DNA of 64,000 nt from Minisyncoccia bacterium (lineage in GTDB: Bacteria > Patescibacteriota > Minisyncoccia > Phycocordibacterales > UBA9973): assembly GCA_038249055.1 (NCBI GenBank), contig JBBRWS010000002.1, positions 14,118 through 78,117 of the forward strand, read 5' to 3'. The notes beneath the pieces are model-generated. The model had not been told where the DNA came from. It did no database searches and worked only from the letters and a program-made list of their open reading frames with translations. A program made the translations under genes and the position numbers. The first letter of the stretch is position 1; the number at the start of each line of letters is the position of its first letter. Shown in pieces: positions 62,115-64,000 of this stretch.

Positions 62115-64000
62115 ATGAATGATTCTCAAGTTAAAAACCGAATACAAAAACTTCGGGAAGAAATTTCTCGATTGAGATTTCTTTATCACGTTGAAGATGA
62201 TCCAAATGTTACTGACGATGTTTATGATTCTCTAAATAAAGAGTTAAAGTTACTCTTAGATAAACATCCAGAATATATAGATTTAAATGCTCCAGAAAAT
62301 AGAGTTGGTGGTAAGCCACTTGATAAGTTTGTAAAAGTTAAACACGAGATACGCATGCTTTCTATGAACGATGTATTTTCATTTCCTGAAGTATCAGATT
62401 GGGAGACTCGAATTTCAAAACTAATAAATAAAAAATATTCATATTTTTGTGAATTAAAATTGGATGGTTTATCCGCTTCTCTAATTTATAAGGACGGTGT
62501 TTTTGTTGAAGGGTCTACAAGAGGGGATGGTTTTATTGGCGAAGATGTGACTGAAAATTTGAAAATGATAAATACTGTTCCTCTAAAACTTAAAGCCCCA
62601 TACCCAGACTATCTAGAAGTTCGCGGAGAAGTAGTAATGCCAAAAAAAGTTTGGGTTTCACTAAATAAAATACAAGAAAAAGAAGGTAAACAACCTTTTG
62701 CTAACACCAGAAATGCAGCAGCGGGTAGTTTACGTCAACTAGATCCCAATATTGCAAAAGAAAGAAAACTTGATTTTTTTGCTTGGGATATTGCTCAGTT
62801 TAAAAATAATAATGAAGATTTAATTATTGGAAATCATTCAGACAAACATAATCTTCTCAAGGGCTTAGGTTTTCAGGTTGCTCCATATGAAATAAAAGCT
62901 AAAAATTTAAAAGAAGTTTTTGCTTTTATTGAAGATATAGAAAAAATTCGTCCAAAATTACCATATGGAACAGATGGGGTTGTTGTGTCTATTGATGAAC
63001 TTGATTTACAAAATGATTTGGGGGTTGTTGGGAAAGCTCCTCGTTATATGGTGGCTTATAAATACCAAGCTGAGCGTGCTACAACAAGAGTTTTAGACAT
63101 TTCAGTTAATGTAGGACGTACTGGAGTTTTAACGCCCGTAGCTCACTTTAATCCAACACTGGTTGCAGGTTCCACTGTTTCCAAAGCTACCCTTCATAAT
63201 ATGGACCAAATAAACCGTTTGGATATTCGTATTGGTGATACTGTTGTTATTCAAAAAGCGGGGGATGTTATTCCTGAAGTTGTTGAAGTTTTAACTAATT
63301 TAAGGAATGGAAAAGAAAAGAAATTTAAAATGCCAGATACTTGTCCAGTGTGTGATTTTAAAATTGAAAGGAAACAGACTTTGGTAGTTTCCGCTGATAA
63401 AGCTCTCTCTCGCAAGGTCCTCGGACGAGGGAGGACGAGGGGCCAGACCATTACTCCAGAGACTTTATCAGCTTCAACATCAAGTGTTGCGTATTATTGC
63501 ACCAATAAACATTGTCCTGCTAGAAGTAGAAGAGGGTTACAACACTTCGTGAATATATTTGAAATATATGAAATTGGTCCAAGAATTCTAGATAGATTAA
63601 AAGATGAAGGACTTGTAAGCGATGGAGCTGATTTATTTACACTCGAAAAAGCAGACCTTTCGGGGCTGGAACGTTTTGGGGAAAAATCAGCAGATAATAT
63701 AATATCTTCTATACAGTCGCATAAAAAAATATCTCTTTGGAGGTTTATTTATTCACTTGGAATAATACACGTTGGTGAGCAAACAGCCAGGGATTTAGCG
63801 GATAATTTTGGATCTTTAAAAAAAATAATGTCAGCTGATATTGAGACTATAAATAGAATTGAAAATATTGGACCAGTCGTATCGCAAAGTATTTTTAATT
63901 ATTTTAAAGATAAAACAAATTTACACTTTATAGAAAAACTTATAAAAAATGGAGTAACTATTTATCATGAAAAAGCAAAAAGCCTTAAGCTGTCAGGTAA
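62115..64000 (+). CDS. ligA: NAD-dependent DNA ligase LigA (5' part; continues beyond window end), with an in-frame insertion in the zinc-finger region
   Basis: My own translation gives [38 protein letters not shown]...CELKLDGLS (KxDG adenylation motif)...CPVCDF...CTNKHCP. It is missing from the ORF track because no stop falls in the window. Confidence 0.85.

Follow-up and report, generated by a model that had tools for sequence, protein, structure and literature searches.

A hairpin element in the zinc-finger loop of LigA

The window analysed here, a stretch of 64,000 nucleotides from contig JBBRWS010000002.1 of a Minisyncoccia bacterium, ends within ligA, the gene of the NAD-dependent DNA ligase, and between the two cysteine pairs of the encoded zinc finger this gene carries a GC-rich hairpin of 80 nt (63393-63472) that is read through in frame (Table 1). 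We refer to the hairpin repeat family to which this segment belongs as F1. The ligA frame is unbroken for 628 codons up to the end of the window, without a stop across the hairpin; the net length of the insert relative to ligA is a multiple of three, and LigA gains about 31 residues. The encoded protein is 100% identical to a database protein of 697 aa (P0001) that has the full set of LigA Pfam domains, and its named nearest homologues carry Pace-, Paceibacterota or Nomurabacteria labels, all belonging to the candidate phyla radiation (CPR), or Patescibacteria. The G+C content of the window is about 32%, and its gene content comprises ribosomal, type IV pilus and housekeeping genes.

The hairpin is closed by a perfect 10-bp inverted repeat, GCTGATAAAG (63393-63402) and CTTTATCAGC (63463-63472), and the outer stem is lengthened past one bulged C by TCTCT pairing with AGAGA. 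Its interior (63403-63462) has 60% G+C with a peak of 70%. Folded as RNA and compared with shuffled sequences, the plus strand reaches -32.9 kcal/mol (z -2.8) and the minus strand -35.1 kcal/mol (z -2.9). The centre CGAGGGAGGACGAGGG is identical in the copy at locus L017, and close variants of it occur at L011 and L052. The window copy is probably preceded by the right-arm remnant of an older copy (63376-63392), which by eye resembles the right arm GGACTTTGGAAATTTCCG of the L019 LigA copy; the last four bases of this remnant, TTCC (63389-63392), double as the left foot tag of the ligA copy. A preliminary description of the window had proposed an in-frame palindromic repeat at 63392-63470. The hairpin itself, with its open frame and perfect 10-bp arms, is confirmed, whereas its borders had to be shifted to those given above. 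The same description had attributed an antisense open reading frame (ORF) at this place to the element; the ORF exists, and its start derives from the element, but the remainder does not.

Comparison with orthologues identifies the segment as an addition to LigA. The spacer between the cysteine pairs (CPVC to CTNKHCP) is 48 aa in the window, as opposed to 12-21 aa in close orthologues without an insert and about 4 aa in Thermus LigA, and among the 120 closest LigA orthologues (67-85% identity) it ranges from 12 to 76 aa. In relatives that are 73-77% identical the loop has only 12-18 aa, in agreement with the excess of about 30 aa estimated previously. Three short-loop orthologues were inspected at the DNA level; their loci show the same pilus-ligA-gatC neighbourhood, their loops are 12, 17 and 18 aa long, and the loop DNA reads GTAGAACAA followed by ACTTCTGTTGC, or similar. 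No F1 copy was found in these three loci (3.5, 22 and 5 kb of DNA). Conservation of the segment in the LigA of genomes that lack the repeat, which had been named beforehand as the observation that would speak against an insertion, was not seen, and the in-frame insertion proposed in the preliminary description was borne out by all comparisons made. The Thermus LigA structures 1DGS and 1V9P align to the window protein in two pieces, with 40 window residues opposite 4, and E. coli LigA is likewise without the extra loop. An AlphaFold model of the window LigA, based on an alignment of 31 sequences, was poor overall (mean pLDDT, the predicted local distance difference test, 62.6; OB domain also <50), and the low-confidence placement in it of insert residues 420-459 between two short strands is weak evidence.

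Table 1. Positions of the features of the window discussed in the text, in window coordinates.
Feature	Position	Strand	Remarks
ligA (NAD-dependent DNA ligase)	62115..64000	+	ATG at 62115; host gene, extends past window end
First Cys pair of zinc finger, CPVC	63342..63353	+	residues 410-413; aligns to Thermus LigA CPEC
Probable right-arm remnant of older class-2 copy, AGACTTTGGTAGTTTCC	63376..63392	+	75% identical direct repeat of 63460-63475
Left arm: GCTGATAAAG, bulged C, TCTCT, CTCGC	63393..63413	+	
Conserved 5' box AAGGTCCTCGGA	63414..63425	+	found in 98 copies elsewhere
Variable centre CGAGGGAGGACGAGGG	63426..63441	+	contains 9-nt direct repeat GGACGAGGG twice
Conserved 3' box GCCAGACCATT	63442..63452	+	GACC-a-TT pairs with AAGGTC
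Right arm: ACTCC, AGAGA, CTTTATCAGC	63453..63472	+	
Right foot tag TTCA	63473..63476	+	family consensus TNCG/A
Second Cys pair of zinc finger, CTNKHC	63498..63515	+	residues 462-467; LigA alignment
Antisense ORF, 66 aa, probably spurious	63251..63451	-	ATG and about first 20 codons within element
Complete F1 copy, in frame in truB	16850..16975	-	core 16873-16954; shorter boxes shared
Solo 5' box of truncated F1 copy in truB	16702..16713	+	fused to second-family palindrome 16725-16790
Intergenic F1 copy between truB and convergent gene 17561-19009	17463..17560	-	core 17489-17531

Copies of F1 in the window and across genomes

Exactly three sites of the window contain the 16-mer GGTCCTCGGACGAGGG, namely 16704 (+), 17514 (-) and 63416 (+), against a chance expectation of 0.06, and this supports the kinship that had been suggested with a truB insertion and a copy at 17487-17532. 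Altogether, the window holds three complete F1 copies and one partial copy. The centre of the complete truB copy is the long hairpin of a second repeat family, described below, and the truB ORF (16400-17434) is still open.

For a census, one genome per species was scanned for AAGGTCCTCGGA and GCCAGACCATT separated by 12-42 variable bases, a two-box pattern for which we estimate less than one match by chance. The strict scan yielded 98 copies on 96 stretches from 66 genomes, all of them Patescibacteria, with named groups including Paceibacteria, Nomura-, Adler-, Kaiser- and Vogelbacteria. Allowing two mismatches per box raised the number of copies in the fetched DNA by only about 10%, and reversed control sequences gave none. 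An identical 39-nt core is present in unrelated genes and spacers across the 66 genomes. Carriage by phages found no support, with zero matches in a viral contig collection.

Host context was assigned for 101 copies, counting ORFs that run through the element and encode 150 aa or more. Same-sense ORFs contain 66 copies and opposite-sense ORFs 13, while 22 lie between ORFs; the choice between coding and intergenic sites, raised in the preliminary description, therefore falls on genes for 79 of the 101 copies (about 78%), and every genic copy is open and in frame. All three forward frames are used (28, 23 and 15 copies), and one reverse frame prevails (11 of 13). According to clustering and Pfam, the hosts are LigA (13), UvrC (12), PheT (6), RecG (5), PolA, Tgt and TruB (4 each), with RecJ (3) and Dus (2) confirmed by Pfam and DnaE (3) and IleS recognised by eye. 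Copies without a spanning ORF are all located in short gaps between ORFs. A gene-by-gene check of two of them, L016 (between polyamine genes) and L026 (between gatB and gap), revealed separate genes in operon-like arrays on either side, and the notion that such copies mark interrupted genes was rejected.

UvrC has three hot linkers, each of which has been seen both filled and empty. In an alignment of UvrC proteins (L001-L095), these linkers are empty or contain F1, members of other repeat families or remnants such as EKHF in L088, and a single UvrC protein, L059, holds two F1 copies. A search of Rfam gave zero matches over the window at gathering thresholds and only chance-level matches of F1 copies at E values up to 10, leaving an identity as an intron, ribozyme or known structured RNA unsupported.

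Occupation of the LigA loop by F1 and other repeats

F1 is present in the zinc-finger loop of at least 62 of the 120 closest orthologues of LigA, in three reading configurations that comprise two forward frames and the reverse strand. It is read as ..SSSSQGPR(I/T)..GQT.. in 31 proteins, in the frame of the window copy in 9 and on the reverse strand, as ..NGLAPLLPRPRTL.., in 23. About 10 further loops contain visibly decayed F1, 23 have 22 aa or fewer, and the remainder is made up of three other repeat families, one of which is the TAGAGGTCCAACC palindrome that is also present in the window. The loop is a clade-wide hotspot of F1. The family that occupies it already differs among relatives that are 81-85% identical to the window LigA (P0002 versus P0003 and P0005). 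Since the arms are palindromic, inverting the entire hairpin would leave them looking unchanged and would not disturb the frame, and part of the orientation diversity in the LigA loop may have arisen in place rather than by re-insertion. In the L066 LigA, a left arm stands alone ahead of an entire copy in reverse orientation.

Two more insert families of the LigA loop were recognised at the protein level only, by their peptides GKGLSSRSEAERGKSLRS and SNSSKSTNISLLGNFSARPSRPAQVFSQNNSSP; their bearers are P0015, P0022, P0038, P0042 and others, and P0016, P0051, P0053, P0056 and P0115. Two LigA fragments from the same bin (CAZKWN; L043 and L054) have the same F1 core in opposite orientations in the same loop, which reflects either an inversion in place that sets strains apart or the binning of two strains together.

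Architecture of the family

The conserved part of F1 is its centre and not its arms, which refines the preliminary description. The two boxes form a helix (AAGGTC paired to GACC-a-TT, with one bulged base) and enclose an internal loop, CTCGGA../..GCCA, and a distal hairpin that varies in length and sequence with compensated changes; the apparent conservation of the boxes is in part an ascertainment effect of the search pattern. The outer arms of 15-30 bp are copy-specific, yet complementary within each copy: in gapless comparison, 13.75 of 18 positions pair within a copy and 6.5 of 18 between copies. In an alignment of the arms of 70 copies, 87.7% of the cells are paired, compared with 58.9% after shuffling, and 474 cells are changed on both sides, compared with 145 +/- 10. 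The covariation score is 0.624 as against 0.131; neither this score nor the number of doubly changed cells was reached in any of 500 shuffles, and slid registers pair at most 51% of the cells. Most arm positions show all four Watson-Crick pair types.

Two classes of arms can be distinguished. Class 1 arms extend over 17-19 bp from the boxes to the foot, where they are framed by direct tetranucleotides in the order CTNC, G-stem-C, TNCG, and the window copy matches this foot as TTCC, G...C, TTCA. Class 2 arms (LigA type) have the order CTTC, GC-core-GC, TCAT within a second hairpin, AAAG-c-TCCT / AGGA-CTTT, with further copy-specific arms. The foot tags were considered as a target-site duplication and rejected as such: the two flanks of one copy match at 1.5 of 5 positions, barely above the 1.2 of 5 between different copies, and a full match of 5 in that register was not seen in any copy. 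The variable tag base is not matched between the left and right side of one copy. A derivation of the arms from the neighbouring target DNA, copied in direct or inverted orientation, was also discarded, with arm-to-flank alignment scores equal to those of controls. Empty LigA and UvrC sites lack both arms.

Copies in different genes of the same genome have identical cores, including the variable centre, whereas their arms are unrelated beyond a few bases adjacent to the core. Such sets were seen in JAIFWI (L023, L037 and L072), CAZRJD (L020 and L086), JBAZQY (L003 and L090) and CALQZN (L070 and L093). Orthologous copies, in contrast, have related arms with compensated differences, for example UvrC L064 and L075, and of three LigA copies whose boxes are mutated or deleted, two (L101, L102) still have perfect outer arms of 17 bp. 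From these compensated differences and the perfect arms around broken boxes it follows that complementarity is kept in place, independently of an intact core. Quasipalindrome template switching turns imperfect inverted repeats into perfect ones during replication (PMC7202029); it would keep the arms complementary without selection, the alternative being that selection acts on a single strand in its folded form. To account for the identical cores, either gene conversion with its centre at the core or the insertion of core-sized segments into hairpin loops already present would be needed.

Strand asymmetry

Transition mismatches in the arms, scored on the core plus strand, are A.C in 107 cases and G.U in 30, a bias found in sense, antisense and intergenic copies. 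The minus strand of F1 folds 5.2 kcal/mol better on average and does so in 85 of 100 copies (Wilcoxon p = 6e-14). In 83 of 101 copies, among them 17 of the 22 intergenic ones, the plus strand runs in the direction of transcription. Part of the orientation bias of genic copies may follow from the peptide that is tolerated, because three forward frames are usable but only one reverse frame; peptide tolerance cannot, however, account for the bias of the intergenic copies. The GC skew varies with gene orientation and gives no means of telling the replication strand from the transcription strand. The asymmetry would fit a DNA hairpin mechanism that acts on one strand, or selection against the stronger mRNA hairpin.

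Other repeats and RNA genes in the window

The second GC-rich palindrome family, TAGAGGTCCAACC...GGTTGTACCTCTA, occurs in the window at 12820-12912, 16725-16790, inside 16885-16935 and at 41618-41662. It lies in intergenic DNA and, in frame, within truB, forms the nested centre of the F1 copy of truB and, in other genomes, occupies LigA loops, where it is read as the peptide RGPTS..EVVPLKRG; it also adjoins the L017 LigA copy. Some members contain an inner module, CAATCAGCAGATTGACCTCACGGGC, which is also present at 27292-27316. A short repeat module, GTGTGAGATTCGAAAGACTTTTC, and related TTTCGAT motifs are found at 41270-41300, 41405-41440 and 27310-27440, the last of which adjoins the transfer-messenger RNA gene at 27503-27896. 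The first two are near a tRNA-Ser gene with anticodon ACT (41111-41197, ARAGORN), of which two extra 3'-end copies, GAATCTCACCGCCTCCGCAAA, are located at 41332-41352 and 41590-41610; these extra 3' ends within 500 bp look like attachment-site remnants of integrated elements. The window also encodes a tRNA-Ile with anticodon TAT (31465-31539), an uncommon solution for reading AUA in bacteria.

Interpretation and alternative explanations

We conclude, at a probability of roughly 0.85, that the ligA segment is one copy of F1, a short, selfish, non-autonomous hairpin repeat family that is dispersed in Paceibacteria-type Patescibacteria and is translated together with its host genes. Based on the distribution and architecture described above, we propose a scenario in which (i) F1 behaves as selfish DNA, with genic copies surviving only where a surface loop or linker tolerates the extra peptide; (ii) the central module, consisting of the helix AAGGTC/GACC-a-TT, the loop CTCGGA/GCCA and the tags CTNC/TNCG, would be recognised by a trans-acting enzyme that copies or moves it; and (iii) the outer arms would be kept complementary by a hairpin-dependent process, which may be template switching between the arms or selection on a single-stranded intermediate. 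The peptide changes with the frame, implying that F1 encodes no conserved protein function. Several observations weigh against this conclusion. No transposase or other mobilising gene was found among ten unannotated or suspicious ORFs of the window that were tested. No pair of copies with identical arms was seen at different loci, and recent transposition of a whole element is accordingly not directly demonstrated. The combination of identical cores with unrelated arms in one genome is not predicted by cut-and-paste or copy-and-paste of a whole hairpin. The 83:18 co-orientation with transcription, evident also between genes, and the wobble strand asymmetry hint at a function or a strand-specific mechanism beyond junk DNA. 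Translation of the insert, finally, is inferred from the preservation of the reading frame in the sequence.

A tentative extension, which we regard as possible rather than probable, is that F1 represents a distinct kind of mobile or self-propagating DNA. Here, the element would be a tagged hairpin whose central module is copied between hairpin loops by strand-specific single-strand insertion or gene conversion, with the arms being re-made complementary by template switching. If true, such copying would explain why copies in one genome have the same core but unrelated arms, why wobble pairs are distributed asymmetrically between the strands and why particular loops of essential genes are nearly saturated across an entire class of the CPR.

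Three other explanations were weighed against a selfish repeat. The hairpin could be a nucleic-acid signal that is useful to the host, such as a DNA or RNA site for protein binding or processing, which has been domesticated and is kept by selection. The sameness of the core across species and genes, the compensated changes between orthologous copies, the perfect arms around the broken boxes of L101 and L102, the co-orientation with transcription, which extends to intergenic copies inside operons, and the better folding of one strand would all be in line with such a role. However, in most copies the mRNA corresponds to the strand that folds less well, which fits an mRNA signal poorly, many orthologues have a decayed element or none without any sign of gene loss, and three unrelated repeat families use the same LigA loop. 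Moreover, quasipalindrome template switching can keep complementarity without selection (PMC7202029), and the two-box conservation stems partly from how copies were searched for, so that we consider a host signal unlikely. Far less probable is that the element is removed after transcription or skipped in translation, like an intron or a byp element, which would leave a LigA without the extra 31 residues. A GC-rich hairpin within an AT-rich genome and the similar direct tetranucleotides CTNC and TNCG at its foot, which could serve as take-off and landing or cleavage sites, would suit such a process. Yet all 79 genic copies are open without a stop, which neither removal nor bypass requires, and because every genic copy keeps the frame open, both processes are improbable. 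The other 22 copies lie between ORFs and not within a broken one, with separate genes at L016 and L026, the variable tag base is unmatched within a copy, Rfam gave zero intron or ribozyme matches and the element is too short for an intein.

The remaining explanation, that the long loop is an ancestral, lineage-specific extension of LigA and that its likeness to the truB and intergenic copies is secondary, could appeal to the presence of a long loop in more than 80% of the 120 closest orthologues. It is already contradicted by the loop being the same DNA repeat in different frames and on both strands with no conserved peptide, by the identical 39-nt core in unrelated genes and spacers of 66 genomes, by the loops of 12-18 aa in relatives 73-77% identical and by the absence of the extension from Thermus and E. 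coli LigA, and we give it next to no credence.

F1 has practical and mechanistic implications. Its main hosts are replication and repair enzymes (LigA, UvrC, PolA, DnaE, RecG, RecJ) and tRNA enzymes, and it explains length heterogeneity and spurious antisense ORFs in gene calls of CPR genomes. F1 copies provide natural markers for strain-level evolution, and the LigA zinc-finger hairpin is marked as a position that tolerates 30-60 extra residues. The conserved core, the compensated copy-specific arms and the foot tags together pose a concrete mechanistic problem.

Comparison with known systems

Full-text literature searches returned no description of palindromic, MITE-like (miniature inverted-repeat transposable element) or in-frame repeats in CPR/Patescibacteria, and F1 is apparently an undescribed family for Patescibacteria. 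Known bacterial MITEs include Correia/NEMIS, ERIC, RUP, Nezha and others (reviewed in PMC10969869). Like F1, they are small, non-autonomous, hairpin-folding and dispersed in the genome, and they are sometimes intragenic with in-frame fusions. However, MITEs have terminal inverted repeats that are conserved between copies as well as a target-site duplication, whereas the termini of F1 are copy-specific and its tags are no duplication. With repetitive extragenic palindromic (REP) sequences and REPINs, which are associated with the RAYT transposase, and with IS200/IS605 elements, F1 shares an imperfect hairpin, a conserved tetranucleotide at its foot, the lack of terminal inverted repeats and target-site duplications, and strand asymmetry. 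IS200/IS605 elements, with a strand-specific hairpin and a fixed tetra- or pentanucleotide at their cleavage sites, move by 'peel and paste', a single-strand transposition mechanism, and the hairpin, tags and asymmetry of F1 would suit an intermediate of single-stranded DNA that is recognised by its structure. REPs are palindromes of 20-40 nt that are tagged at the 5' end; in contrast to their GTAG/CGTC tags (PMC3733652), those of F1 are CTNC/TNCG. F1 is a single long hairpin instead of the two subterminal hairpins of the REP/REPIN-IS200/IS605 type, and 78% of its copies are intragenic while REPs are extragenic. No Y1/HUH or TnpA gene was identified with F1, a genome-wide search for Y1/HUH not having been made. 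Since conserved termini, a target-site duplication and GTAG/CGTC tags were tested for and not found, F1 is neither a MITE nor a REP as these are defined.

The mobile GC clusters of yeast mitochondria and the byp elements are GC-rich palindromic insertions in very AT-rich genomes that are also found inside protein-coding genes. Ribosomes skip the byp elements of Magnusiomyces mitochondria, which can do without an open frame, whereas genic F1 copies are always open and in frame. Translational bypass of the byp or gene 60 type involves matched take-off and landing codons, while the tag bases of F1 are unmatched within a copy.

The closest counterparts of F1 are the Rickettsia palindromic elements (RPEs), RPE-1 to RPE-10, described by Ogata et al. 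in 2000 and 2002 (as summarised in PMC10969869). RPEs and F1 alike consist of short palindromic repeats that lack any ORF of their own and populate small, AT-rich genomes. In-frame insertions in unrelated housekeeping genes, where they are apparently translated, occur in both alongside copies in non-coding DNA, and a mobilising enzyme is known for neither. With many dispersed copies, open host frames and permissive sites that show presence and absence among orthologues, F1 falls into the RPE-like functional class. In-frame intragenic MITEs have been listed in a few other bacteria, and RPEs were singled out for their unusually high frequency of such insertions (PMC10969869). In R. felis, 85 of 728 RPEs are genic (PMC1166351), as opposed to about 78% of F1 copies. 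F1 is shorter, at about 80-130 nt, its conserved part is central and its arms are copy-specific, and it fills one loop, that of LigA, in most orthologues, in three reading configurations and on two strands. Its hosts belong to a different phylum, the Patescibacteria, and the likeness to RPEs is drawn at the level of functional class. Translated selfish hairpins in essential genes, best known from Rickettsia, have a comparable phenomenon across a large CPR class with minimal genomes, in which F1 works like an RPE but with a different architecture and a much wider, clade-level distribution.

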